Shown: positions 25,871 through 41,719 of the stretch, piece by piece
Numbering within the stretch: position 1 is the first letter of the stretch
Layout: each line of letters begins with the position of its first letter
Assembly (NCBI GenBank): GCA_046757025.1
Contig: JBHHXN010000004.1
Coordinates: 1 to 64,000 of the forward strand
Direction: 5' to 3'
Source of the DNA: a bacterium
GTDB lineage: Bacteria; Zhuqueibacterota; Zhuqueibacteria; Oceanimicrobiales; Oceanimicrobiaceae
DNA length: 64,000 bases
The notes under the pieces: generated by a model
Told to the model about the DNA's origin: nothing
Seen by the model: the letters and a program-made list of their open reading frames with translations, nothing else
Database searches by the model: none
Translations under genes and position numbers: made by a program

Positions 25871-27214
25871 ATGCCTAAAAAAAAGGGGAAATCTAAAAAG
25901 AAAAAAAACAGCTCCGCCGCGTTATCGCCCAAAACCTATCTCAAAACCCGGGCCCGTAATTTACCCATTTATGAGTGTTTTATCTCCGATAACTGGAAAA
26001 CGTTGCGTATTCCAGACATTGTTGTAGCCAGAAAGCACAAAAACGGTAATATCACCTGCGGCCTCTTCCTTGTGGACCTGTTTTGCCTGGGCGTTGTGGA
26101 CACGTTTTTTGGATTTAATATGACCGAGGCGGAATACCAGGATTTTCTGGATACTTACATTCAGTATTCAATTTTGGAAGAATGCGACTACGCTTTAGTG
26201 CATAACATCGTTTACGGCGCTTTGGACTTTGCGTGTAAATATGGATTTCAGCCTCACAGAGAATTCGCCACCACTCAATACCTCTTGGAAGAGGCGTCCG
26301 CAGAAATTGACCATATCGAAATCGAGTTTGGAGATGAAGGCATGCCGTGCGTGCTTACCGAATCCCTGGAAGAATCCAAGGACATTATCAAACAACTTGA
26401 TAAAACCGCCGGCCGGGGCAATTACAAAGTGGTTTATCTGGAAGCGAACGGATCTGACGATGAATATGCTGTTGCAGACGACTATTATTATGATGATGAC
26501 TTTGATGACACAATAGAAGACCGCCTGAACGCTATCGAAAAACTCGATCAGCTATATGAAGAGAAGTTTGGCAAAACGCATAGGCCAGAAATTAAACCTG
26601 AATTTCTTGAATACCGCGAATATAAGATCACATTCGAACCGCTGAAAAATCCGAATTACTTCAGTCCAGAAGAAGACCAGCTTAAAGCCGAAGAGCTTTA
26701 TAATCTGTCGCGTTCTGGAAGCGCCAGCAAAGCACGTAAAGCGATTCCGCAATTGCTCGCGTTGATGGAGCAATTCCCCAATAATCCCATCTATTACAAT
26801 TATTTGGCAATTGCTTATTCAACTGCAGGTGAAAAAAAAGCCGCCACGGAAGTTTGTAAAAACTGTTATAAAAAATTTCCTGAATATCTGTTCGCTAAAT
26901 GTAATTATGCCCAGTACTTGCTCGATGAACAGAAATTCGAAGAATTATCGGCCGTTTTTGACAACAAGTTTGATCTGCAAATGATTTATCCGGATCGAGA
27001 CGAGTTTCACATCAGCGAGGTGCTGACTTTTTTTGCGACCATGTGCCGATATTTCATTGCCATCGATGATTTGGCCACGGCGGATGTTTACGGAAATTTG
27101 TTAAAAGAATTTAAAGACATGGATAACCCCTTGAAAAATCGGGCCCTGTTCGAATTAACCGCTAAGAAGTATGAAAAGGTTTTCGGTATGCCTCTTTTTA
27201 ATAAGGAAGCGTGA
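25871..27214 (+). CDS. Hypothetical protein with acidic linker and C-terminal TPR-like repeats
   Basis: 447 aa; GGGAGG RBS; FLVDLFCLGV N-terminal domain; helical repeat PIYYNYLAIAY...FPEYLFAKCNYA. Confidence 0.7.
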   Translation: MPKKKGKSKKKKNSSAALSPKTYLKTRARNLPIYECFISDNWKTLRIPDIVVARKHKNGNITCGLFLVDLFCLGVVDTFFGFNMTEAEYQDFLDTYIQYSILEECDYALVHNIVYGALDFACKYGFQPHREFATTQYLLEEASAEIDHIEIEFGDEGMPCVLTESLEESKDIIKQLDKTAGRGNYKVVYLEANGSDDEYAVADDYYYDDDFDDTIEDRLNAIEKLDQLYEEKFGKTHRPEIKPEFLEYREYKITFEPLKNPNYFSPEEDQLKAEELYNLSRSGSASKARKAIPQLLALMEQFPNNPIYYNYLAIAYSTAGEKKAATEVCKNCYKKFPEYLFAKCNYAQYLLDEQKFEELSAVFDNKFDLQMIYPDRDEFHISEVLTFFATMCRYFIAIDDLATADVYGNLLKEFKDMDNPLKNRALFELTAKKYEKVFGMPLFNKEA

Positions 27215-27328: not shown

Positions 27329-28696
27329 ATGTTTGCCAGCGCTAAAATTGACGCCGCAACGGTAATAAATTCTTCCGGGCAATCAGACGCTGTGGTCTCT
27401 GAAACTTTCGATATCAAGTTAAGCCGCCCGCAGCAGCAAAAATCAAGCTCAAAAAAATACCGTAAACCGCGGGTTCTATTTCTGATGCCAACCCGAACTT
27501 ACCGCGCAAACATGTTTTTAGAAGCCGCCGAACGCCTGGATGTGGATGCGGTGATCGGCACAGACCAGCCGCAGACACTGCCGTCCTTCACCGCTGGCAA
27601 AATCCTCACCCTCAACTTCAACAATGAGGAGCGGGCGAAACAAGCCATCGTCGAGTTTGCGGCCGCGCATCCCCTGGCCGCGATCATCGCCACGGATGAC
27701 GACACGGTGGTGGTGGCCGCGCTGGCATGCGAAGCGCTTTCCCTGCCATCTAACCCGCCCGATGCAGTGCGGGCCACTCGTCAAAAGCACTTAATGCGGG
27801 AAATCCTGCAAAAGGCCGGTCAGCCTACCCCGAATTTCACCGTGTGCACCACCGATAAAGATCCGGAAGCTCTCTCCCGGTCGGTACGCTATCCTTGTGT
27901 CATCAAACCAGTATTTTTATCCGCCAGTCAGGGTGTCATTCGGGTAAATAATCCGCCGAAGCTGCAGCAAGCGTTTGCCCGAATCGTCGATCTCCTCAAA
28001 AACAGCGAGCTGAGAGAACGCGGCGGCCCGGCCGCCGATCTCATTCTGATTGAGGACTATATCCCCGGACGGGAATTCGCTCTGGAAGGTTTGTATTCCA
28101 ACGGCATACTAAAGGTGCTGGCCCTCTTCGATAAACCCGATCTGCTGGAAGGACCCTATTTCGCCGAAACCATCTACGTCACTCCTTCGCGCCTGTCGGA
28201 AGATCAACAGGCCCAAATTGTGCAATGTGTGGACGGCGCGGCCAAAGCGCTTGGGCTGACTCACGGACCTATTCACGCGGAAATTCGTCTTCACGATGCG
28301 CAGCTCTTTATTCTGGAGATTGCAGCGCGTTCCATCGGCGGTCTCTGCTCTCGCAGCCTGCGATTCGAAAAAAACATGTCGTTGGAAGAGCTGCTTTTAC
28401 GACATGCCCTGGGTTCGCACATCGCCGCAGTTGAGAGAGAAAGCCAGGCCGCCGGTGTCATGATGATCCCGGTACCCCAGGAAGGCATTCTAACAGAGAT
28501 TCGCGGTCTGGAATGGGCCAAAGGAGTGGCAAACGTAGAAGAAATCAAAATCACCATACCCGTGGGACAAAAGTTGATCCCGCTGCCCGAAGGCAATCAG
28601 TATCTCGGGTTCATTTTTGCCCGGCACCCCAACCCGCAAAACGTCGAAATAGCTTTGCGAGAAGCTTTTGGTTGTTTGGAATTTGTGATTGATTGA
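27329..28696 (+). CDS. ATP-grasp domain ligase
   Basis: YPCVIKP..SASQGV, IEDYIPGREF, FDKPD, IHAEIR, LEIAARSIGG; the true start may be later. Confidence 0.85.
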   Translation: MFASAKIDAATVINSSGQSDAVVSETFDIKLSRPQQQKSSSKKYRKPRVLFLMPTRTYRANMFLEAAERLDVDAVIGTDQPQTLPSFTAGKILTLNFNNEERAKQAIVEFAAAHPLAAIIATDDDTVVVAALACEALSLPSNPPDAVRATRQKHLMREILQKAGQPTPNFTVCTTDKDPEALSRSVRYPCVIKPVFLSASQGVIRVNNPPKLQQAFARIVDLLKNSELRERGGPAADLILIEDYIPGREFALEGLYSNGILKVLALFDKPDLLEGPYFAETIYVTPSRLSEDQQAQIVQCVDGAAKALGLTHGPIHAEIRLHDAQLFILEIAARSIGGLCSRSLRFEKNMSLEELLLRHALGSHIAAVERESQAAGVMMIPVPQEGILTEIRGLEWAKGVANVEEIKITIPVGQKLIPLPEGNQYLGFIFARHPNPQNVEIALREAFGCLEFVID

Positions 28697-28926
28697 TGAA
28701 TCTCGCAAGTTTGGGGGCCATGGAAAGGTATGATGGCTTTCTTTCTTACTTGCATTATTCACGAGAGACGGTTTATCTGGATTGTCCAAAAGCTTTTTGG
28801 GGCGTCATTCCCGCGAAAACGGGAATCCATAACGCAATGGAGTTTATTGGAAAGCCGCTAAAAGCATACAGGCATGACACAGGAAAAATCAATGTTTTTA
28901 GACATCCCTGGAACGCCTCCGCCAGA

Positions 28927-28973
28927 AAACCCGGTTTTGCCTTTTCGTGCCTAAGGCGGGCACCCGGGGTTTT
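28927..28973. terminator. Putative bidirectional terminator hairpin between the convergent ATP-grasp gene and nfuA
   Basis: aaaacccgg...gcct...aggc...ccggggtttt imperfect inverted repeat with A/T flanks. Confidence 0.4.
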
Positions 28974-29109
28974 GGTGTACAACGCCTTCGGCGTAATAGA
29001 CTAGCGTCATCAAAGACTTTTGCTGGACGTTACCTACTCAAATCAACATACCACCTCTATAAATCATTTTTTGACAGCCTTTATTGACCGCCTTCAAGGC
29101 AACCGATGG

Positions 29110-29697
29110 CTACTTCGAAGGCTGATAATACGGATTTTTGCCGTCCGCGTGATCGGTGACATCCATCACTTCTTTGATTTCGGGGATGGCTTCTTTGATC
29201 ATCACTTCCACGCCCTGCTTCAGGGTCACGTTGACCATGCCGCAGCCCTGGCAGCCTCCGCCAAATCTCAGGTAAGCGATATGGTCTTTCACATCCACCA
29301 GCGAAATAAAGCCGCCGTGGGAAGCGATGGCCGGATTGATGCGCGAAGCGATCACCTGCTGCACTTTATCGGCCAGCGGGCCGGATGGCACCGGCGGTCC
29401 CATGGCTTTCGGATTGGTGATTTTAAAGCCGGTTTCATTGAGACCCTGCACAAAGTCCACATTGGCGCCCTCCACCAGCGGCGCGCTCTGCGGATCCACG
29501 TAAAATTTGATACCGGAAAATTCCGTAACCTTATCGGCTTCATGCGTCTGCCCTGGCTCCACGAACGCCAGTCCGTAATCCACAGAAAACGGCGAAGCTC
29601 CGCGTTGGGCCGTAATCCGGATGCCCTGGCCTTTATGGTCTTCCTCCTCTAAAATCGATTGAAATTTTTTTAACGCATTATCACTGAGGTTGAACAT
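29110..29697 (-). CDS. nfuA: Fe/S biogenesis protein NfuA
   Basis: Degenerate A-type domain plus NifU-C (INPAIASHGG...GGGCQGC...DVTDH...NPYY); AGGAG RBS before ATG 29697. Confidence 0.88.
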   Translation of the reverse strand: MFNLSDNALKKFQSILEEEDHKGQGIRITAQRGASPFSVDYGLAFVEPGQTHEADKVTEFSGIKFYVDPQSAPLVEGANVDFVQGLNETGFKITNPKAMGPPVPSGPLADKVQQVIASRINPAIASHGGFISLVDVKDHIAYLRFGGGCQGCGMVNVTLKQGVEVMIKEAIPEIKEVMDVTDHADGKNPYYQPSK

Positions 29698-29893
29698 CGA
29701 GCTCTCCTGCTTTAAATTTGTCAGATCGGCTAAAGTTGTCGTGACTGGTCTTTTTATTTTTAAATCCCGTTTAATTTTCAATTTTTCAAAATAATCGTTT
29801 GTGATTAAAAATGCAAGTTAAATTAAACTGAGCTGCAAAACAAATGCAAAATTCATCTTCTATTTAAAGTCATTCCATCAATTAACCCCTGAT

Positions 29894-30050
29894 TAGTGTT
29901 TGACCGAAAATGAGCGTCTTCATACTGAATCGCGAAGTAAATTCAAGAGAACATGACGTAAAAACAAAAGCTAATCCCCCTTCGACGCCGTCTATCCTGA
30001 GCTTATCGAAGGATTCAGGTTGAAGAAATATGGACTTTTCGGTCAGACAC
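29894..30050. mobile_element. MITE-like element
   Basis: TAGTGTTTGACCGAAAA...TTTTCGGTCAGACAC; interior is nearly collinear with 39053-39200. Confidence 0.65.
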
Positions 30051-30068
30051 GAATTTATCATTTTCAAA

Positions 30069-31496
30069 TCACATGGAACCAAACTGATCCCGGTTGGGCT
30101 CCGCTCAGCAGAACCAATCTTCTGTCAGGCGCGGTGTAAACATTCGCTGTTGAGCCAAATGAGTCGGACGAATTTGCCGTTTCCTGCCAGCCAGCTCGAA
30201 TACACCATTTCTTATTTCAAAGTAAGTATCTATTAAATCCTGATGGCGGCCGGCGGCTTTTTCCACCATTTCTGCGATGGCAATTTGAAGTTCATCCATG
30301 TCCGAATGGGGATGCCGCCAGGCGTACAGCCATTTTTCCTTATCCAACCCAAGAACAAACGGTTTGATGTCCCCTAAATTCAAAATGCTCGAGCCCGGCG
30401 GAATGAGCAATCGAATGCTGTACTGGATGGGGTCGATTTGATCATAGAGATGAAATTCTTCCACCAGATTGAAAATGTCCAGCAAATCGGAGATTTTCGT
30501 CCAGGGGGTGAAGGGCATCAACGAGGGACGCAGGGGAATACCCGCTGCGTGCGTCAGGTGCAAAGCTTCCTGCACATCCGATTTCGTGTGGTTTTTTGCC
30601 AGAAATTTCAAAATCGCATCGTTCAAAAGCTCCACTGCCGACACGATGAACACACAGCCAGTTGCTTTAAATTCCGGCAAAAGATGCTGGTATTCCAGCA
30701 GGTGTTCTATCTTGGCTGTGAAATCAAATGTCAGCTCAGGAAATCGCTGGTGAAACTCGCGGACGATGTCCAGCGAATGTTTGACGCCGTTTAAAAAATC
30801 GGGATCCCCGAACGTGATGTGTTCGGCTCCCAGCTCTACGAGCTGTTCTACATCCGCCAGTACGATTTCTTTCGGGATGATCCGCATGCGTCCGGCATAA
30901 ACCGGGGTAATGGGACAGTGCCGGCAGCGATGCGCACAACCCCTGCTGGCCAGAGTGTATCCGGTGAGTCGCAGCTCCTCACCCATTTTTAATCGGGTAT
31001 AGCGGTCGAGCGGCGGCATCAAGCTGCGCTCGGGCACGATGAATTTTTGCCTTGAAACAGACGTTATGGATTGCGGCAAACTTGAGCGGTTTTCGAAACG
31101 GGGGTCATTGAGGTTATTTACGACGGCCCGGGCAATCTGTACCAGAGTCTGCTCAAATTCTCCGCCGGCGATTGAATCGGCCAAGCCCGTGTTTCCGTTT
31201 TGAGCCAGCAAAAATTCCGAGTGCATGCCGGCGTAGAGTCCAAAAAAACAGATGTGACAGCCGGGATTCAATTTGCGGACGCGTTTGGCGACCTTTTCGG
31301 ACAAACGCAGGGCGGTGTGCATGGGAGTGGACAGCGCAACCAGTTGGGCCTCTTTTATCAAATCTTCAGCAAACGGCTCAACCGACAAATCCAAACAGTT
31401 AACTTGAAAACCAGCAGCCAGCAAATGGGCCGTGGGCGAAGCTAAATTAAACGGCTGGTGTCCCAGCTCGTAAAGGGAAATTAAAACGATGTTCAT
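30069..31496 (-). CDS. CUAEP-tail radical SAM selenoprotein (in-frame UGA at 30105-30107 read as Sec)
   Basis: CAHRCRHC motif, B12-binding-like N-terminus; reading through TGA gives PRLTEDWFC-U-AEPNRDQFGSM*. Confidence 0.85.
30075..30102 (-). promoter_or_regulatory. Candidate bacterial SECIS hairpin
   Basis: mRNA GGAGCC-C-AAC-C-G-(GGAU)-C-A-GUU-U-GGUUCC, immediately 3' of the UGA. Confidence 0.55.
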
Positions 31497-31504
31497 ACCG
31501 CTGC

Positions 31505-32512
31505 TTATCCGCCGATCTGATACATTTCGATCTTTTGGTGGGCGCCGATATCGGTATGAGAAGTTCTTTCCTCGGAATAACGATCCGTTCGTTTTTGCCA
31601 GATGCTTTTGATTTTTTGCAGCAGTTTTTCATCGGAAATACCCGAGCGCAGGGTTTTCTTCAAATCCACACCCTGACAGGCAAACAGGCAGGTGTACATT
31701 TTACCCTCGGCAGAAAGCCGGACGCGGGTGCAGCCGCTGCAAAATGGCTGCGTTACCGACGCGACCACGCCAATTTCGCCCCTGCCATCGAGGTAGCGGT
31801 AGCGATTGGCTACTTCGCTGTGAAAGTTTTTTTTCACCGGCGCGAGCGGTATCTCTGCATGAATGATCGCCACGATTTCTTTTGCTGAAATCACGTCATC
31901 CATTTTCCAACCGTTCAAATTTCCCACATCCATAAATTCGATAAAACGTATGATGAACCCGTTGTCCCGGGCAAACCTGGCGAGGTCGAGAATCTCACCA
32001 TCGTTGACGCCTTTTTGAATCACCGCGTTGATTTTAACGGGCGCTAATCCTGCTTTGACCGCGGCTTCGATACCATCCAGCACGTTTCGCAGATCCAGAT
32101 GATTACCGGCTAATTCTTTCAGCAAAGCGGGTTTCAGGGTATCCAGACTCACCGTGACTCTTTTCAAGCCGGCTTGTTTTAATCCCTGTGCTTTCTGTTT
32201 CAAGAGATAACCGTTACTGGTGAGCGCCAAATCTTTCAGCCCGTGGATATTGGCCAGCTTTTCAATGAGTACTTCCAGTTCGTGTCGCAGCAGAGGCTCG
32301 CCGCCAGTCAGCCGGATTTTAGCGACGCCGCATTGCACATACGCCTTTGCAAGGCGATGAATTTCTTCAAAGGAGAGAATTTCATTCCTGGCTAAAAAAA
32401 CATAATTATGGCCGAAAATATCCGCCGGCATGCAGTAATTACAACGAAAATTGCAGCGGTCGGTTACGGAGATGCGTAAATCCTGCAGCGGTCGGGAGAG
32501 TCTATCTAACAT
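31505..32512 (-). CDS. moaA: GTP 3',8-cyclase MoaA
   Basis: LRISVTDRCNFRCNYCM, RLTGGEP, FCSGCTRVRL...TCLF, C-terminal IGG. Confidence 0.95.
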   Translation of the reverse strand: MLDRLSRPLQDLRISVTDRCNFRCNYCMPADIFGHNYVFLARNEILSFEEIHRLAKAYVQCGVAKIRLTGGEPLLRHELEVLIEKLANIHGLKDLALTSNGYLLKQKAQGLKQAGLKRVTVSLDTLKPALLKELAGNHLDLRNVLDGIEAAVKAGLAPVKINAVIQKGVNDGEILDLARFARDNGFIIRFIEFMDVGNLNGWKMDDVISAKEIVAIIHAEIPLAPVKKNFHSEVANRYRYLDGRGEIGVVASVTQPFCSGCTRVRLSAEGKMYTCLFACQGVDLKKTLRSGISDEKLLQKIKSIWQKRTDRYSEERTSHTDIGAHQKIEMYQIGG

Positions 32513-32861
32513 TTACACACTTTTTTAAAAAGTTAAAACAACCCGTGCTAATTTCTTCGGTTATCCCCCACCGCTCCCTGCTTACGACAATCAGGGAGAA
32601 ATTCATTGTGAATTTCGTGCTGAAAATTCAATCGGCTGTCCGCTCAATGAATGCGGACATGACCATCCTATCTAAAAATTACCGTAGTCTCGAAAAACGA
32701 TAATTTTTCTTGACCAGGCCAAACTCAGCACCGCGCGGCTGAAAATGTTGTTTTGAAAACCGTTTAAATCACCCTATCCGCGCTAAATTACGATAAATTT
32801 ACGCCAATGTCAACATTTGATACGGGCTGCCCCAAACGGTAAATCCGATTAAATTTCACGA

Positions 32862-35359: not shown

Positions 35360-35968
35360 TTATTTTTCCTCTAACTTTTTCACCAATTTGTTATACATTT
35401 CCTCATAGGAATTTTTGGCGATCTGTTTGTAAAAAGACTCGCGATAATTGCGCGCGGTGCTCACGCCGTCGATTTCTATGTCATAAACCAGCCATTGCCC
35501 GTCCACTTTGTGCATTTTGTAAACGATTTCCACTTCCTTCCTTTTTTTAAAAGCGATGGTGGTCACCTTGGCTTTTGAACCGTTGATCTCCGCTTCTTCA
35601 TACACCATTTTATCGGCTTTATAAATTTCTAATTTTTTCACAGAAGAATTTTTGATGAGTTGTGAAAAAGTTTTCACGAAGTCGTCTTGTTCCTTCGGGG
35701 TTCGCTGTTTCCAGTATTTGCCCAAAGACAATCTCGACAGCTCGCGAAAGTCCATGACGCCATTTATGACCTCTTTCAATTTTTCCCGAATTTCAGTGGT
35801 GATGTTATCATCCGCTTCATCGAGTATATTTTCGATGGCTTGATTGCGGGCTTTTACGATTTCCACCGGCGACACATCCGGTCGAGCAAAATTAGCGTTA
35901 CTGAAAAGGGTCAGGGCTCCCAATAACAAAATCGTTGGAATTATCCATCTATTTTTTTTCATGGTCAT
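35360..35968 (-). CDS. MlaC/Ttg2D-family periplasmic lipid-binding protein
   Basis: Signal peptide; MDFRELSRLSLGKYW, WLVYDIEIDGVS..RNYRESF. Confidence 0.85.
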   Translation of the reverse strand: MTMKKNRWIIPTILLLGALTLFSNANFARPDVSPVEIVKARNQAIENILDEADDNITTEIREKLKEVINGVMDFRELSRLSLGKYWKQRTPKEQDDFVKTFSQLIKNSSVKKLEIYKADKMVYEEAEINGSKAKVTTIAFKKRKEVEIVYKMHKVDGQWLVYDIEIDGVSTARNYRESFYKQIAKNSYEEMYNKLVKKLEEK

Positions 35969-36000
35969 TTCCTCTTTTTCTAAAATCTATCTATTACATT

Positions 36001-37374
36001 CTATTTCGCATACAAATCTCGGCCTGTAGCTTTACTTAATTTCGCCATTGCTATATTATACGTAAAAATGTTCTGTAAATGTTCCGCTTGCATGGCGCCA
36101 TTGGCTTTAAAAGCGTCGATCAGCTCTTTGACTTCGCCCACGCCGATATCAAAAGTCATGGTAGCAGAGCGCAGCCAATTGTCGCTGGCTTTGAGTGCCC
36201 GACGGCTGGCCCGCATGTTGCGTTCGGCCTGCTGCAATTCTAAATACGACTTCTCCACTTCCAATTTCAGACCGTCTATCAGCAGCTTTTCTTTTTGTGC
36301 CAGTTGTCGAAACTCCATCTGCGCCACACGCACCTTATCCCGCGTTTGCAAAAAATTCAGATTCAAATTCATCCCCAGAGCGACGCCCGGACGAAAATAA
36401 TTGGTGGGGTTGTAAATGAACGGTCCTTTCGGATCAAAGCGATCCTGTGCATAATTATATTTAATCTGTCCACCAAAAAAGAATTGCGGAAAATAATCGC
36501 TTTTGCTCACCGTAATCATGGCTCTTCGCGCGTTGATGCCCGCCCGCAGTTGCGACAGCTCCGCCCGATTTTGCAGCGCCATTTCGTAATAAACCGAGAG
36601 GCTGTCCAAATGAAAATCCAATGGATCCAGATATTCGGTAGCCGGCTCGATTTCCACGTCGTCTGCCAGTCCCAGCGTCACTTTCAGCACCGATTTCGTC
36701 AGCTTGATCTTATCCACGGTTTGCCTTTTTCTTTTGTCCACTTCGTAGCGGAAAATTTTCAGTTTAAACAGATCGGTTTGCGATATTTCATCGGAGCCCT
36801 CATCCAGCTTTTCCTGAATTTTGTCTTCCGCCTTTTTCAGCTCGTTGTCGGCATTTTCAACCACGCTTAAAAGCTCCTTTCCCAGCACCAGCGCCCAGTA
36901 GAGCTGACGCACTTGCAATCGCACGCTTTCGCGCTCTTTTTCGATTTTCGCTTGGTCTGCCTTCACCCCATAAGACGCAGCTTTTGCAATCCCGCTCAGT
37001 TTACCAAAGGTGTAAATCGGCTGAATCAAATCTAAATCTACCTGAGTGAAAAGTCTGAGATCGCCAGGAATACTGGTAATTGAATCCGGAGAAATGACAA
37101 AGCTGCCGGTTGGATCCATTTTACCGCGTGCTCTGGGAAGCGTTCCCCAGATATTTTTCACTTCAAATTTTGGGAGAAATTTAGCATGAGACGCCTGAGT
37201 TAATTTCGCCTCAGAGGTTTTTAAACTGAGCCGGGCATCTTGAATGGTCAAATTATTTTCAAAGGCTAATTTTTCGCAATCAGGCAGGCTTAATACTAAC
37301 TTTTTATTTTCTTGACTAACGGCATAGGTCGTGCAGATTAGAAAAATGTAGAGAACAAAATTTTGTTTTACCAT
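36001..37374 (-). CDS. TolC-family outer membrane protein
   Basis: Two OEP-like repeats (FLPKF/YFPQF, QPIYTFGK), C-terminal LSKATG. Confidence 0.85.
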   Translation of the reverse strand: MVKQNFVLYIFLICTTYAVSQENKKLVLSLPDCEKLAFENNLTIQDARLSLKTSEAKLTQASHAKFLPKFEVKNIWGTLPRARGKMDPTGSFVISPDSITSIPGDLRLFTQVDLDLIQPIYTFGKLSGIAKAASYGVKADQAKIEKERESVRLQVRQLYWALVLGKELLSVVENADNELKKAEDKIQEKLDEGSDEISQTDLFKLKIFRYEVDKRKRQTVDKIKLTKSVLKVTLGLADDVEIEPATEYLDPLDFHLDSLSVYYEMALQNRAELSQLRAGINARRAMITVSKSDYFPQFFFGGQIKYNYAQDRFDPKGPFIYNPTNYFRPGVALGMNLNLNFLQTRDKVRVAQMEFRQLAQKEKLLIDGLKLEVEKSYLELQQAERNMRASRRALKASDNWLRSATMTFDIGVGEVKELIDAFKANGAMQAEHLQNIFTYNIAMAKLSKATGRDLYAK

Positions 37375-37400
37375 CCACCCTCTTCATTGTATTTAAATGG

Positions 37401-38666
37401 TTATTCGGCTTTTAATTTCTCTTTGACACCGGAATCGGCGTCCGCCTCTTTAAGCGCCCGGATATCATCGTAATCGGCGTAAGCTTTTGAGTTCGTCGAA
37501 TTGGCGTCAGACAGGATGCCGATACCAACAGGCCGGGCGGGCGGTTTACCGCCGAAAGTTTTTTTATAGGCTTCATAAGCGTTGAATGTATAGGTTCGCC
37601 ATTCTCCCAGATGTTCTTCGCCGCTATCCGCCACGATGTTCCAGGGCTTGCCAATACCGCTGCGCTGCATGGCGGCTCCCACCGGCAGCGTGGTGCTCCA
37701 AACATATTTCACCGACTCCGGAATCAAACCCAATTTCTTTTTGTAGATGATGTAGATGCCAGCCGCGCTGTCCACCGAGCGACTGTAGCGCTCATCCCCG
37801 CCGGCTGGCACATGATGCACCCTCCAACGAAATGAAATGTAAGGATATTTCTTCAAATTCCACACGATGTCTTTCCCCAAAATCACCGATTCTCCGTTGT
37901 CTTCGGCTGCTAAAAATTTGTTACCCTTTTCTTCTACGATTTTGTATGGTTTATTTTTTTTATTATCCGATTTCTTCCACAGCCAGCCTCTTGGCAGCTT
38001 GCCGACTTCACTCGATTCAAAATCCTCTAAGATGACATAGTCGGAACGGGTCATCTCAGCTATCAAGTAAGCCAGCGAGTATTTTTTAATGATCTTGCTG
38101 CAAAAACTGTAGTAATCGCGCAGTAAACTTCTTTTTCCGGCTTTCAAGTTAGATATACGCCAGCTACCGTCTGGATATTTCAACATGTAAAGCGTGATTT
38201 CTTTTTTCTCTTTTACGCCTTCCAGTGAATAATTTAGTGTCGCAACGTTGTCATTGGTTTTGCTCGACGTTAATTTTATCCCTGGCAAATTTCCATTGCT
38301 TTTATCATTAAGATAGGTCAGAATCTTTTGCCGTAAAGAGATCTTGATTGCTTCCATGAACGCCTTTTTTTGGTGATCGCTGGTACCCTTCCACTTTTTT
38401 TGCAACATCTGTGGAGCCAGCCTTTCTACAGCGAACAATTCATCCACCAACTGGTAGAGCTGCTGCTCTCGCGAATCCGGATCGTTTTTAGCGCCATTTT
38501 TAAATTGATCGTGGATTTGTTTGTAAAATCGATCGATGGTTTGCTTGGGCGTCAGGCTGTCGTTTTCCCCCATCCCAAAATATGATGTGCCAGCACCAAC
38601 GACGGAAAACGACAAAATCAAGGAAACAAGCACAAAACGGGGCTTTAGATTTTTGTATTTAAACAT
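37401..38666 (-). CDS. Fusion of an MlaC-like domain and a DUF3047-like domain
   Basis: N-half resembles MlaC (QMLQKKW...WRISNL...SLLRDY); C-half YPYISFRWRV..GGDER..DSAA..IKY/VKYVWS..SDANST. Start chosen at ATG 38666. Confidence 0.7.
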   Translation of the reverse strand: MFKYKNLKPRFVLVSLILSFSVVGAGTSYFGMGENDSLTPKQTIDRFYKQIHDQFKNGAKNDPDSREQQLYQLVDELFAVERLAPQMLQKKWKGTSDHQKKAFMEAIKISLRQKILTYLNDKSNGNLPGIKLTSSKTNDNVATLNYSLEGVKEKKEITLYMLKYPDGSWRISNLKAGKRSLLRDYYSFCSKIIKKYSLAYLIAEMTRSDYVILEDFESSEVGKLPRGWLWKKSDNKKNKPYKIVEEKGNKFLAAEDNGESVILGKDIVWNLKKYPYISFRWRVHHVPAGGDERYSRSVDSAAGIYIIYKKKLGLIPESVKYVWSTTLPVGAAMQRSGIGKPWNIVADSGEEHLGEWRTYTFNAYEAYKKTFGGKPPARPVGIGILSDANSTNSKAYADYDDIRALKEADADSGVKEKLKAE

Positions 38667-39052
38667 AAATGATAGTCGCTGAATAAAATGATAAATTTGC
38701 AATCGCTTGGTTATTCTTTTAATAATCAACACTTTTGAGGATAGTATTGTTCCAGCAATCAATTTAATTTAGTTTAATCAAAATACAAATCAATACTTAT
38801 TTCGTTGAACAAAATAATCCATTCAACGCGATTTTGAGACAAAGGTTGCAAATTTGCTCATACCTGTGAAGCGTTAACCGGTATTATGAAAAACGGCTAT
38901 CCAGTTATATTATTCACCAAATTGCAATTTTTTTTTGAATATGTCAGAATTTTTTTCTCCCCAAAACAAGCGATTGGTTTTCAACTTTTGGCCATTGGTA
39001 TTTAATTTTTTAGTACTTACGTTGGGATTATCAATTCACCCTGTCGCTTAGT

Positions 39053-39200
39053 TAGTGATTGACCGAAAACGAACATCTTCATGCTGAGCGGAGTCAAAGC
39101 ATGACTAAAAAACAACAGCTTATCACCCTTCGACGCAGTTTATCCTGAGCTTGTCGAAGGGCTCTGGGTGAAGAAATATGGACTTTTCGGTCAATCACTA
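39053..39200. mobile_element. MITE-like element with perfect 17-bp terminal inverted repeats
   Basis: TAGTGATTGACCGAAAA ... TTTTCGGTCAATCACTA enclosing REP-like hairpins. Confidence 0.7.
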
Positions 39201-39301
39201 GTTACAATAACCATTTTAACTGATTGTGTTTTATTAGCTAACAACCAACGGCTAATTGCGAATCGCGCAATTTAGGTTCTCTTTTAATTGCTGATGATGC
39301 T

Positions 39302-41719
39302 CTAAGCAGTTTGCAGTTCCTTCACGGGCTGCTTTTTCGAGGTTTTCTTCTCTAAAAATTGCAGCAAAGCTGGCAAAACCAACATGGCCGTGACAAACGC
39401 AGCACTGATACCGATGATGGCCAGATCGCCGATGGAATTCAAGCCTGGATGTCGCGCCAGAATTAATCCAGAATAGCCCACGATGGTGGTTAAGGTGGTC
39501 ATAGCAATGGCCATTCCGGTGTTTCTTAAGACGTGGTAAAGAGAGCCGGGGCCTTCTTCCAGATAGCGGTGGTACAAATGCACGCCGTTGTCCACTCCGA
39601 TGCCGATGATACTGGGAAGCACCACAATGTTAAAGAAATTGAGTTTCATCCCGGTGAGATACATGACCACGCCCATCCACACTACACCGACTACCAAAGG
39701 AGTTAGCACAAACAAGGTGGCTTTGAAGCTATTGAAATCGATGAACACGATTATAAACACCACAAAAAAAGTCAGAATCACTGCCAACCTCCCCTCGCGA
39801 ATTAAGATCGTCAGCATCTCAGCCAGAATAATGTTTGAGCTGGAAGCATAATACGTTTTGCCGGACGCGGTAGTCATCTTGCCGATATCCCGGCGAAATT
39901 CAATGGCGTTACGGCCGTCTTTCAAGGCGACGCTGGGATAGATGAAAACAAAATTACCCACCTCGCCTTTTTTGTTGATGAATTGTCTTTTGTCTTTTTC
40001 AGGAAAATCCTCCCAGGTGAACGGCGCTTCCACCTGTAAGTAGCCGTACAATTTGTCCAGTCTTTCTTTATCTTCGCCCTTCACCACGTCTTCGGCTTCC
40101 TCGTCGATGAGCTGTCTTATTTGCTTGATTTTCGCGATTTTCTCAAACTGATCATCCGGCACCAGCGAAAACGCCGAGCGCACAGTTTTAACCGTTGGCG
40201 AAGTGGTGTCGCTTTTGATGATCGCTTTCACGGCTGTCACAATTTCTTCGGTCTCCGCTTTGGTGTCGGCCATTACCAGCGCCGGCGATTCGGACAGTTT
40301 GAACGCCCCCTCGGATTTTTTGCCGATCAACTCCCGCTCTTTGATATTGGCCCGCAGATTGGTAAAATCGTATTCAAAACTTACCTGACTGAAACTGTAA
40401 ACAGCAAACAGCGTGATCAGACCCGAGATCAGCAAGATCGGTTTAGCATATTTGAATTCCCTGCGCTGAAAGCTCATGCTCTTAGCCGGCACCGGCTTGA
40501 TTTTCAGCAAATGCCACTTTTCAAACAAGGTGATCATAGCGGGCAGCACCACCACCATGGCCACCAGCGCAAATAACATTCCCACGCCGGCGATGAAACC
40601 CAGATCGGAGAAGCCTTTGAAATCCATCAGCGTGAGCGACAAAAACGCCGCCGAAGTCGTGACCGCAGTGGTGGCCAGGGCCTTACCCGTTTGGTTGACC
40701 AGTTTCTCGATGGCGGCTTCAAAGCTCAAGCCGCTTCTTCGACTCTCCGAATATCGGGCGAAAGCGTGAATGCCGTAGTCGATTCCCAGTCCAAATAAAA
40801 TCACAAACAAAAAGCCGGTGATGGTATTTAAATTCCCAATGACCCAGTAGGTCAAACCAAACGTCCAGGTCAGCGACATCAGCAGGGTTAAGGTAATCAT
40901 GAATGCACCGGCAAAGCGACGAAAATAGAGAATGATCAACAAAAACACGCCGCCAAAGCCGTAATAAGCCGTACCGAGGATGTCCCTTTTCACCACCGCG
41001 TATTCATCTAATTTGGTTTTGAAATTGCCGCCGTAATAAATCGCCATTTCGGGATCGTACTTTTGTGGCTCTGCGGCTTCGACAATGGCCGTGACTTCGT
41101 CGTAAAAATCCTGTACAAAAGCCAGGTCGGTGTTGGTGCTGGTGGGCATCACTTTCATGATCAGCACAGTGCTGTCTTTGTTGATGTAATATTCATTGGG
41201 TTCTTTGTACTGGTATTCTTCTTCCCAGCTCGCCCAGCTCTCGTCTTCCGTTGATTCCTCATCGTCTGCAAAAAGGTCATCCACAAACAGAGGATTGAGC
41301 TTTTGTTTCTCCGCATCGATTTTATCCTGAATGCCCTCGTAAAGCGCGTCGATCTCCTCCAGGTCCATCAGCAGCAAACCGTATTTTTTGTAAAAAGCCA
41401 CGTCGTTTTTGTAATCCACATAATTGACAATGGGACTGGCAAGCAGTTTATTTTCCAGAGCGGCCGCAAACGCTTTGGCAGAATCGAGGTGGCTGGTTTC
41501 CAGGATTATTTTTAAATTGCCCACGCCGCCCACTTCTTCCTTGATGGCGTTCAGGGCTTTTACGCTTTCGAAATTATTGGGCAACAATTCAGCCAAATCA
41601 GTCTGCAAAGTCAACTTGGAAGAATAGTAGCCGCCAACAATACTGAGCAAAAGCGCTACGAGTAAAATGGGTACATAATACTTATAAACCACATAATATT
41701 TCTCAGAAAATCTGAACAT
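39302..41719 (-). CDS. MMPL/RND-family lipid exporter (HpnN-like)
   Basis: Two repeats with GLGIDYGIH and GIGVDNGVH; about 12 TM; 805 aa. Confidence 0.88.
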   Translation of the reverse strand: MFRFSEKYYVVYKYYVPILLVALLLSIVGGYYSSKLTLQTDLAELLPNNFESVKALNAIKEEVGGVGNLKIILETSHLDSAKAFAAALENKLLASPIVNYVDYKNDVAFYKKYGLLLMDLEEIDALYEGIQDKIDAEKQKLNPLFVDDLFADDEESTEDESWASWEEEYQYKEPNEYYINKDSTVLIMKVMPTSTNTDLAFVQDFYDEVTAIVEAAEPQKYDPEMAIYYGGNFKTKLDEYAVVKRDILGTAYYGFGGVFLLIILYFRRFAGAFMITLTLLMSLTWTFGLTYWVIGNLNTITGFLFVILFGLGIDYGIHAFARYSESRRSGLSFEAAIEKLVNQTGKALATTAVTTSAAFLSLTLMDFKGFSDLGFIAGVGMLFALVAMVVVLPAMITLFEKWHLLKIKPVPAKSMSFQRREFKYAKPILLISGLITLFAVYSFSQVSFEYDFTNLRANIKERELIGKKSEGAFKLSESPALVMADTKAETEEIVTAVKAIIKSDTTSPTVKTVRSAFSLVPDDQFEKIAKIKQIRQLIDEEAEDVVKGEDKERLDKLYGYLQVEAPFTWEDFPEKDKRQFINKKGEVGNFVFIYPSVALKDGRNAIEFRRDIGKMTTASGKTYYASSSNIILAEMLTILIREGRLAVILTFFVVFIIVFIDFNSFKATLFVLTPLVVGVVWMGVVMYLTGMKLNFFNIVVLPSIIGIGVDNGVHLYHRYLEEGPGSLYHVLRNTGMAIAMTTLTTIVGYSGLILARHPGLNSIGDLAIIGISAAFVTAMLVLPALLQFLEKKTSKKQPVKELQTA

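Follow-up and report, generated by a model that had tools for sequence, protein, structure and literature searches.

A probable selenoprotein of the CUAEP-tail radical SAM family in a Zhuqueibacterota genome, and candidate reactions for this relative of ArsL

We analysed a 64,000-nt stretch of bacterial DNA (the window: positions 1 to 64,000, forward strand, of contig JBHHXN010000004.1 in assembly GCA_046757025.1, from the Oceanimicrobiaceae of the phylum Zhuqueibacterota), and describe here a gene on its minus strand that very probably encodes a radical S-adenosylmethionine (SAM) selenoprotein of family NF040546, with the UGA codon at 30105-30107 decoded as selenocysteine (Sec). This prediction of recoding draws on the conservation of the protein tail past the TGA, the alternation of that codon between Cys and TGA among homologs, a hairpin found only in the TGA forms, and a complete Sec machinery in the genome. 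Curators have already recorded both the family and its Sec status, as the name of NF040546 shows, and both have been mentioned in print; what goes beyond the literature that we found is the covariation in the selenocysteine insertion sequence (SECIS), the statistics of the gene neighbourhood, and the presence or absence of the radical SAM gene in syntenic relatives. The remaining interest is the reaction catalysed by this large sister family of ArsL, for which we weigh several candidates below. The features of the gene are as follows.

30069..31496 (coding 30072-31496), minus strand: full gene for the CUAEP-tail radical SAM protein, a predicted selenoprotein of 475 aa, from translation with TGA read as U
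30915..30938, minus strand: radical SAM cluster motif C187-x3-C191-x2-C194, from invariant Cys columns and the Pfam Radical_SAM match
30084..30134, minus strand: conserved C-terminal tail motif P455-R-L-T-E-D-W-F-C-U-A-E-P-N-R-D-Q471, from invariant columns
30105..30107, minus strand: UGA codon very probably read as selenocysteine, U464, from codon comparison with homologous loci and from the Sec machinery
30075..30091, minus strand: putative SECIS hairpin of 6 bp (two of them G-U), from comparison with TGA-form and Cys-form homologs
30069-30071, minus strand: predicted true stop TGA of the selenoprotein gene, the second in-frame TGA

The UGA codon and the read-through protein

The open reading frame (ORF) as called, 30105..31496 on the minus strand, ends with ...PRLTEDWFC at the TGA at 30107-30105. 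The same frame then continues as GCG GAG CCC AAC CGG GAT CAG TTT GGT TCC ATG up to a second TGA at 30071-30069, exactly as an earlier note on this DNA, made from its letters alone, had described. Reading through the first TGA gives the C-terminus C463-U464-A-E-P-N-R-D-Q-F-G-S-M and a protein of 475 residues, a continuation well beyond what chance would produce. Against this read-through protein the NF040546 profile, named "CUAEP/CCAEP-tail radical SAM (seleno)protein", scores 615.1 bits, compared to a curated cut-off of 500, and aligns over its positions 1-467 of 468 with residues 3-473 of the protein. The tail thus lies within the match, which bears out the family assignment made in the earlier note. 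In a six-frame search of the genome with the same profile, the window gene is the sole match over the cut-off (608.3 bits, with one in-frame TGA). The protein also matches the Pfam Radical_SAM domain (PF04055) at 43.9 bits, and falls just under the gathering score for the B12-binding domain (PF02310; 31.0 bits compared to 32.1).

Homologs are numerous. A protein search produced at least 8000 scored candidates (database clusters), all with E≤1e-20, and among the best 120 of these, 92 (the window's own ORF included) end at ...W[F/Y]C, 27 run on as CC[A/S]EP[T/S/M]xxQ, and one is partial. A scan for loci, using one genome per species, gave at least 599 pattern matches, of which at least 581 encode relatives; the 80 loci that we kept come from KSB1, Gemmatimonadota, Acidobacteriota, Methylomirabilota/Rokubacteria, Nitrospirota, Planctomycetota, Chloroflexota and other phyla. 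Three of these end at a contig end, leaving 77 informative loci, of which 55 carry TGA and 22 carry TGC/TGT at the aligned codon. Past the TGA the frame reads [A/S]EP in every case, and all but a few have a Gln four residues beyond the Pro. In an alignment of 89 sequences, C463-U464-A465-E466-P467 of the window protein lines up with the CCAEP of 26 Cys forms and with the tails of 46 read-through TGA forms, and the invariant positions are L457, E459, W461, F462, C463, C/U464, E466, P467 and Q471. The comparison with homologs that the earlier note had suggested, asking whether the position alternates between Cys and Sec beside a conserved AEP, has therefore come out in favour of recoding. A practical consequence concerns annotation: ORF callers and most records stop at the Sec codon, as do the 92 of the best 120 homologs and also the RefSeq entry of Thermomicrobium roseum, so that the tail is missing from them.

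The T. roseum gene is of some interest in itself. It lies on the megaplasmid of strain DSM 5159 (locus L105, 6935-8446) and encodes a CUAEP-tail member, annotated as a CUAEP/CCAEP-tail protein, with 44% identity to the window protein, whose RefSeq coding sequence ends at the TGA. Its in-frame continuation, U-AEPLEDPSG..., is without the otherwise invariant Gln four residues past the Pro. Its neighbours are a pyridoxal-phosphate (PLP) aminotransferase and a major facilitator superfamily (MFS) transporter, rather than the ligase or NfuA described below for other loci, and a search of that one megaplasmid record did not find an ortholog of the ATP-grasp ligase.

A putative SECIS hairpin begins 13 nt past the UGA. 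Counting the U of UGA as nt 1, the window's GGGAUC (nt 17-22) can pair with GGUUCC (nt 28-33) around a loop of A23 G24 U25 U26 U27. A gapless MAFFT alignment is unsuitable for counting such pairs, because loops of 4 or 5 nt shift the 3' arms out of register; pairing was instead scored by a script that took a 5' arm ending at nt 22 and a loop starting from A23, with shuffled 3' arms as the control. The comparison took in 52 TGA sequences (the window and 51 loci, one locus being too short) and 19 Cys-codon sequences. At least 5 contiguous bp form in 49/52 TGA forms and in 0/19 Cys forms, compared to 2.8% of 1040 shuffled 3' arms, and pairing in the TGA forms differs from that in the Cys forms with a Mann-Whitney p of 5e-11. 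Stem pairs 2, 3, 4 and 6 each vary among three to five standard pair types in the TGA forms, which argues for compensatory change, and the loops are AGUU(N), of 4 or 5 nt, with G24-U25 inside the loop. Taken over the homologs, this comparison shows a predicted SelB-type hairpin, 13 nt past the UGA, as the element directing Sec decoding.

The weakness lies in the window's own copy of the element, and two results on it tell against recoding. Its hairpin is calculated by RNAfold at -6.3 kcal/mol, compared to -11.0 for a competing fold in which GGAGCC pairs with the same 3' arm, and the 71 nt after the Cys codon have a minimum free energy no better than that of shuffled sequences (z = 0.16), that is, no excess stability. 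Since minimum-free-energy folding of the single sequence gave no significant structure, the SECIS is recognisable only through the comparison with homologs. An Rfam scan of 28600-32700, with E up to 1, returned no match.

The genome, which is 94.8% complete, carries what is needed for Sec insertion, in answer to another check proposed in the earlier note. We find selA (581 bits), selB (362 bits) and two selD genes (406 bits, and 380 bits for a copy with an in-frame TGA), together with a tRNA-Sec that scores 65 bits compared to a gathering score of 47 and that ARAGORN calls as tRNA-SeC with anticodon tca; all are over their cut-offs. The selD with the in-frame TGA directly adjoins selB (contig C73, 3532-6446) and so appears to be a selenoprotein gene itself, while the other selD (contig C344, 1415-2341) has no such stop, lies inside an open frame of 755 residues and may belong to a fusion protein. 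With these results, the earlier note's proposal of a hidden selenoprotein holds for the conserved tail, the Cys/TGA alternation, the hairpin and the machinery alike. The opposite reading takes the TGA as a genuine stop, which would end the protein at C463 and leave the AEP frame beyond it as a relic. It agrees with the way that gene callers and database records end the protein, yet it is left with almost no support and is extremely improbable: the residues beyond the TGA are conserved, homologs have either a Cys codon or TGA at the aligned position, only TGA forms show the hairpin, and the genome has the complete Sec machinery.

We also compared selD among genomes holding the two forms of the gene, all of them metagenome-assembled genomes of unstated completeness: selD is over the cut-off in 5/5 TGA-form genomes, each copy having its own in-frame TGA, and in just 1/5 Cys-form genomes. 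Selenium as an obligate substrate of the enzyme is for this reason disfavoured, four of the five Cys-form genomes being without a selD over the cut-off.

An AlphaFold2 model of the window protein, built from the 89-row alignment, has a mean predicted local distance difference test score (pLDDT) of 92.5 and a predicted template modelling score (pTM) of 0.92. The modelled architecture runs from a Rossmann-like N-terminal domain, in the place of the B12 domain of class B enzymes, through a radical SAM barrel and two C-terminal helices to a linker of ~60 residues with low conservation and then the tail. The pLDDT falls from 89 in residues 451-460 to 69 in 461-470 and 55 in 471-475, so that the PRLTEDWF stretch is modelled as docked on the body, with the C-U itself less fixed. 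The best structural matches by Foldseek are AprD4, OxsB, TsrM, MgmA and MiaB, at a template modelling (TM) score of about 0.55-0.68 and with 14-18% identity; E-values range from 3e-16 to 3e-13 for AprD4 (6fd2), OxsB (5ul2-4), TsrM (6wte) and MgmA (9ccb), and RimO is, with MiaB, also among the matches. A sequence search of the PDB did not find a structure of ArsL or of a CUAEP protein, and returned distant class B and MiaB-type enzymes only.

Gene neighbourhood

The gene stands between genes for an iron-sulfur (Fe-S) carrier and for MoaA, with an ATP-grasp ligase gene close by, as follows.

27329..28696, plus strand: predicted ATP-grasp enzyme of L-amino-acid-ligase (LAL) type, from Pfam ATP-grasp_4, LAL_C2 and ATPgrasp_N
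29110..29781, minus strand: predicted NfuA-type Fe-S carrier, from its Fe-S_biosyn and NifU domains; likely start ATG at 29697
31505..32512, minus strand: predicted MoaA (GTP 3',8-cyclase), from TIGR02666 at 391 bits

To ask which neighbours recur, we used tblastn calls in 81 loci (the 80 above and the window), 48 of them with 3 kb or more on each side of the gene. The recurrent neighbour families over the 81 loci are the ATP-grasp ligase, NfuA, DUF169, an IscA-like family and MFS transporters. In the well-flanked loci, the ligase lies within 8 kb of the radical SAM gene in 32/48, an NfuA-type gene is found in 29/48 and both occur in 25/48; DUF169 follows with 11/48 and the IscA-like gene with 10/48. 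Counting either or both of ATP-grasp and NfuA gives 36/48 loci, and 9/48 have none of the four families (ATP-grasp, NfuA, DUF169 and IscA-like). SufBD and a cysteine-desulfurase-like gene were each seen at single loci. Order and strand of these neighbours vary among loci, which suggests selection on their proximity. None of the recurrent families in the 81 loci is an ars or mer family, and neither is a thioredoxin- or reductase-type partner recurrent there. A look-up of the ATP-grasp enzyme in the ESM Atlas returned unnamed ATP-grasp/LAL clusters only.

In the window, MoaA ends 9 nt upstream of the radical SAM gene on the same strand, and the two genes are probably co-transcribed. As a functional partner across the family, MoaA was rejected, being a neighbour in just 4/81 loci.

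Some further observations on the window may be of use to annotators. Homology of the nfuA product starts only at residue 30, which makes the listed TTG start at 29781 look too far upstream. A gap of ~370 nt (29698-30068) separates the true stop of the selenoprotein gene from the likely ATG of nfuA, and has no Rfam match. On the plus strand, 25871-27214 is an ORF of 447 residues whose N-terminus is rich in Lys and whose middle part is acidic, and which is without an NCBIfam match at E≤1e-5. On the minus strand, 35360-41719 is a run of lipid-transport type, comprising an HpnN/BstA-like resistance-nodulation-division (RND) transporter of 805 aa, two MlaC/HpnM-like proteins and a TolC-like outer-membrane protein.

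Candidate reactions

The CUAEP family is called "uncharacterized" in the accessible part of a 2022 preprint (bioRxiv 10.1101/2022.07.06.499078), which agrees with the earlier note's remark that its reaction was not established, and our literature searches on CUAEP/CCAEP, on RCCLKC and on the combination of ATP-grasp, NfuA and radical SAM turned up no study of what the family does. Judged by sequence, the closest characterised relative of the window protein is ArsL, at 37% identity. A tblastn search of plasmids gave 40 records; among the 15 matches listed are the T. roseum gene, 13 annotated RCCLKC-tail proteins and one radical SAM domain protein from Bacillus cereus ATCC 10987, all 14 matches other than Thermomicrobium being from Bacillus and Priestia. 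Aligned with one of the plasmid RCCLKC-tail proteins, the window protein shows 37% identity over 412 columns, which take in its first roughly 403 residues (E = 5e-93).

According to the accessible parts of two preprints (10.1101/2024.02.01.577332; 10.64898/2026.04.29.721666), ArsL cleaves SAM to 5'-methylthioadenosine (MTA) and a 3-amino-3-carboxypropyl (ACP) species, and is the sole canonical-fold radical SAM enzyme reported to make ACP rather than 5'-deoxyadenosine (5'-dA). Its C-terminal CCxxC motif binds As(III) via three cysteines, and truncation of the tail leaves its Fe/S content unchanged, again as far as those accessible parts report. With ArsL as the nearest characterised relative, and with a Cys-rich tail of that relative reported to bind As(III), the earlier note's tentative suggestion that the CUAEP tail may bind a metal or metalloid or relay redox chemistry is a reasonable one.

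By analogy we tentatively favour an ArsL-like reaction, in which ACP would be transferred to an acceptor presented by the Cys-Sec tail. SAM would undergo reductive cleavage at C-gamma-S, and a soft acceptor atom, which the vicinal Cys-Sec pair would hold or present, would then receive the ACP unit. This would yield an amino acid bearing ACP, for the ATP-grasp ligase that occurs with the gene to couple to a partner, while NfuA, IscA or YggX would supply or repair the cluster of the radical SAM enzyme. Arsenic is unlikely as an obligate substrate, because of the gene context. A more far-reaching version, which we offer as speculation and consider doubtful, is that the family joins ArsL as another radical SAM enzyme of non-canonical type, and would transfer ACP to a non-arsenic acceptor (S, Se or a tail chalcogen), to be ligated by the ATP-grasp enzyme into a small molecule for iron-sulfur/thiol homeostasis across many uncultured phyla.

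The plasmid ArsL homologs offer an observation of their own on ligation. In the Priestia (locus L106, 1741-6275) and Bacillus cereus (locus L107, 1444-7275) plasmids, an ATP-grasp gene sits ~2-3 kb upstream of the RCCLKC-tail gene, which suggests that ArsL homologs of the Bacillus type may likewise make a product that undergoes ligation. The ATP-grasp gene of these islands has 24% identity to that of the window (E = 5e-19); the two islands are related and hence not independent. Both also carry a major intrinsic protein (MIP) channel, a GTP-binding protein and an N-acetyltransferase.

How far the ligase depends on the radical SAM enzyme can be judged from 151 genomes of the window's phylum, a sample in which kinship among relatives precludes a p-value. 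The radical SAM gene is over the cut-off in 13/151 genomes (12 with one in-frame TGA, one cut short), and the ligase profile has a strong match in 23/151, including 13/13 of those positive for the radical SAM gene; leaving out one unpublished genome (G154), the figures are 12/150 and 12/12. Of the ten loci with a ligase and no radical SAM gene found, we inspected eight. In three of these the ligase is beside a YggX-type Fe(II)-trafficking gene (L108, 10035-10316; L111, 7795-8082; L113, 6882-7163) and in one beside a class V aminotransferase, cysteine-desulfurase-like (L112, 9855-10979). The ligase seems to be tied to iron-sulfur helper genes or housekeeping, with the radical SAM gene an optional addition to the pair.

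Several findings weigh against the ArsL-like reaction, or against the coupling of its product by the ligase. NF040542 (ArsL), though the second-best family for the window protein, scores 309.5 bits and stays under its cut-off of 450. The tail offers two chalcogens in CUAEP, compared to three in ArsL, and the residues H13, H60, H193, C281 and H303, invariant or nearly so in CUAEP proteins, correspond to F, F, Y, V and T in the one ArsL-family sequence that we compared. The window's NfuA gene is the sole NifU-domain gene of its genome, and for that reason NfuA may be a housekeeping carrier rather than a dedicated partner. The ligase occurs without a radical SAM gene being found in 10 genomes (70-98% complete) of the 138 that are negative for the latter. 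Furthermore, two close relatives, G035 (locus L110, 12838-14481) and G078 (locus L114, 3008-4749), are syntenic with window 29110-32512 and have no radical SAM gene there: all three genomes have the order FolE, hydrolase, ATP-grasp, NfuA, MoaA and a short-chain dehydrogenase/reductase (SDR), with NfuA and MoaA only 45 and 116 nt apart in G035 and G078, and a search of the rest of those two genomes gave no radical SAM copy at E≤1e-30. The radical SAM gene between NfuA and MoaA is thus a clean presence/absence polymorphism among close relatives. Because the ligase persists without it, both in the 10 of 138 genomes and in the two syntenic relatives, the ligase does not depend on the radical SAM enzyme, and because ligase and NfuA persist together, models in which the radical SAM enzyme makes the ligase's only substrate are weakened. 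Finally, ACP and 5'-dA chemistry are not separable from sequence alone.

The main rival to the ArsL-like reaction is a canonical 5'-deoxyadenosyl radical enzyme, whose Cys-Sec pair would serve as a mobile redox or H-atom relay, quenching a product radical or giving two electrons through a selenenylsulfide cycle. We regard this as possible, if somewhat unlikely. Thioredoxin reductase has a C-terminal Cys-Sec, and radical SAM epimerases and spore photoproduct lyase have H-donor cysteines; the relay reading likens the CUAEP tail to these. It accounts for there being only two conserved tail chalcogens, and for the free interchange of Sec and Cys, which, with the four of five Cys-form genomes lacking a selD over the cut-off, points to a tuned catalytic residue and not to a selenium substrate. 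A tail on a poorly conserved linker of ~60 residues that is nonetheless modelled as docked would fit a swinging arm, and the nearest solved folds (AprD4, OxsB, MgmA and MiaB) are 5'-dA enzymes. On the other hand, the neighbourhoods have no recurrent partner of thioredoxin or reductase type, and the closest characterised relative, ArsL, is reported in the accessible preprint text to make ACP and not 5'-dA, with its equivalent C-terminal Cys motif binding the substrate and not electrons.

Clearly less probable is an organometalloid or organometal synthase, in which Cys-Sec would chelate a soft ion such as As(III), Sb(III) or Hg(II), and a carbon-metalloid bond would be formed as by ArsL. The homology to ArsL speaks for this, as does the occurrence of CU dipeptides otherwise in mercury- and organometal-related proteins, according to the accessible part of the 2022 preprint (10.1101/2022.07.06.499078). 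Yet ars and mer genes are not among the recurrent neighbours in the 81 loci, whereas RCCLKC-tail genes lie inside ars islands; the tail has two chalcogens and not ArsL's three; and a spread over many phyla and at least 581 species genomes resembles core metabolism more than metalloid handling.

We consider sulfur insertion very unlikely. Here the tail would ligate or feed an auxiliary Fe-S cluster or persulfide that is consumed at each turnover and rebuilt by NfuA, much as lipoyl synthase is reported to have a sacrificial cluster rebuilt by NfuA. Among the neighbours, Fe-S carriers are indeed second only to the ligase in persistence (NfuA and the IscA-like gene at the frequencies given above, with SufBD and the cysteine-desulfurase-like gene at single loci), and MiaB and RimO are among the structural matches. 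Against this, two tail residues are insufficient to hold a cluster alone, NfuA as the sole such gene in the genome may be adjacent for housekeeping reasons, and NfuA and YggX adjoin the ATP-grasp gene even where the radical SAM gene was not found; moreover, tail truncation left the Fe/S content of ArsL unchanged, as the accessible parts of the ArsL preprints report.

Whichever reaction applies, the family is large, with at least 581 species genomes in one scan and at least 8000 database clusters in one protein search. Identification of the substrate of a CUAEP-tail enzyme would show whether ACP chemistry is widespread, and would explain the amino-acid ligase and the Fe-S carriers that travel with the gene.

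Comparison with known systems

The window protein shares with the curated family NF040546 the C-U-A-E-P tail, the Cys/Sec alternation and the radical SAM motif, and we see no difference in the protein.

ArsL and the window protein both have a two-domain architecture with a Cys-rich motif at the extreme C-terminus. In the ArsL family this motif is R-C-C-L-K-C and comes straight after the core, whereas C-U-A-E-P is carried on the linker of ~60 residues, so that it occupies the equivalent topological position some 50 residues farther along. The genomic contexts also differ. The two plasmid RCCLKC-tail loci that we inspected are ars islands with ArsR, the MIP channel, ACR3 or another arsenic transporter, and ArsN1, whereas ars genes are not recurrent near the 81 CUAEP loci.

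In the class B enzymes AprD4, OxsB, TsrM and MgmA, as in the model of the window protein, an N-terminal Rossmann-like domain is followed by the radical SAM barrel; these enzymes are without a Cys-Sec tail, and are just 14-18% identical to the window protein.

For the recoding element, the natural comparison is fdhF of E. coli, whose SECIS hairpin follows closely on the UGA and carries a G-U step at about nt 23-25, in the apical loop. The putative window element has its G-U step in a like position, at G24-U25. It differs in having a shorter stem, of 5-7 bp, and in spanning the last coding codons of the gene, so that it ends near the true stop.

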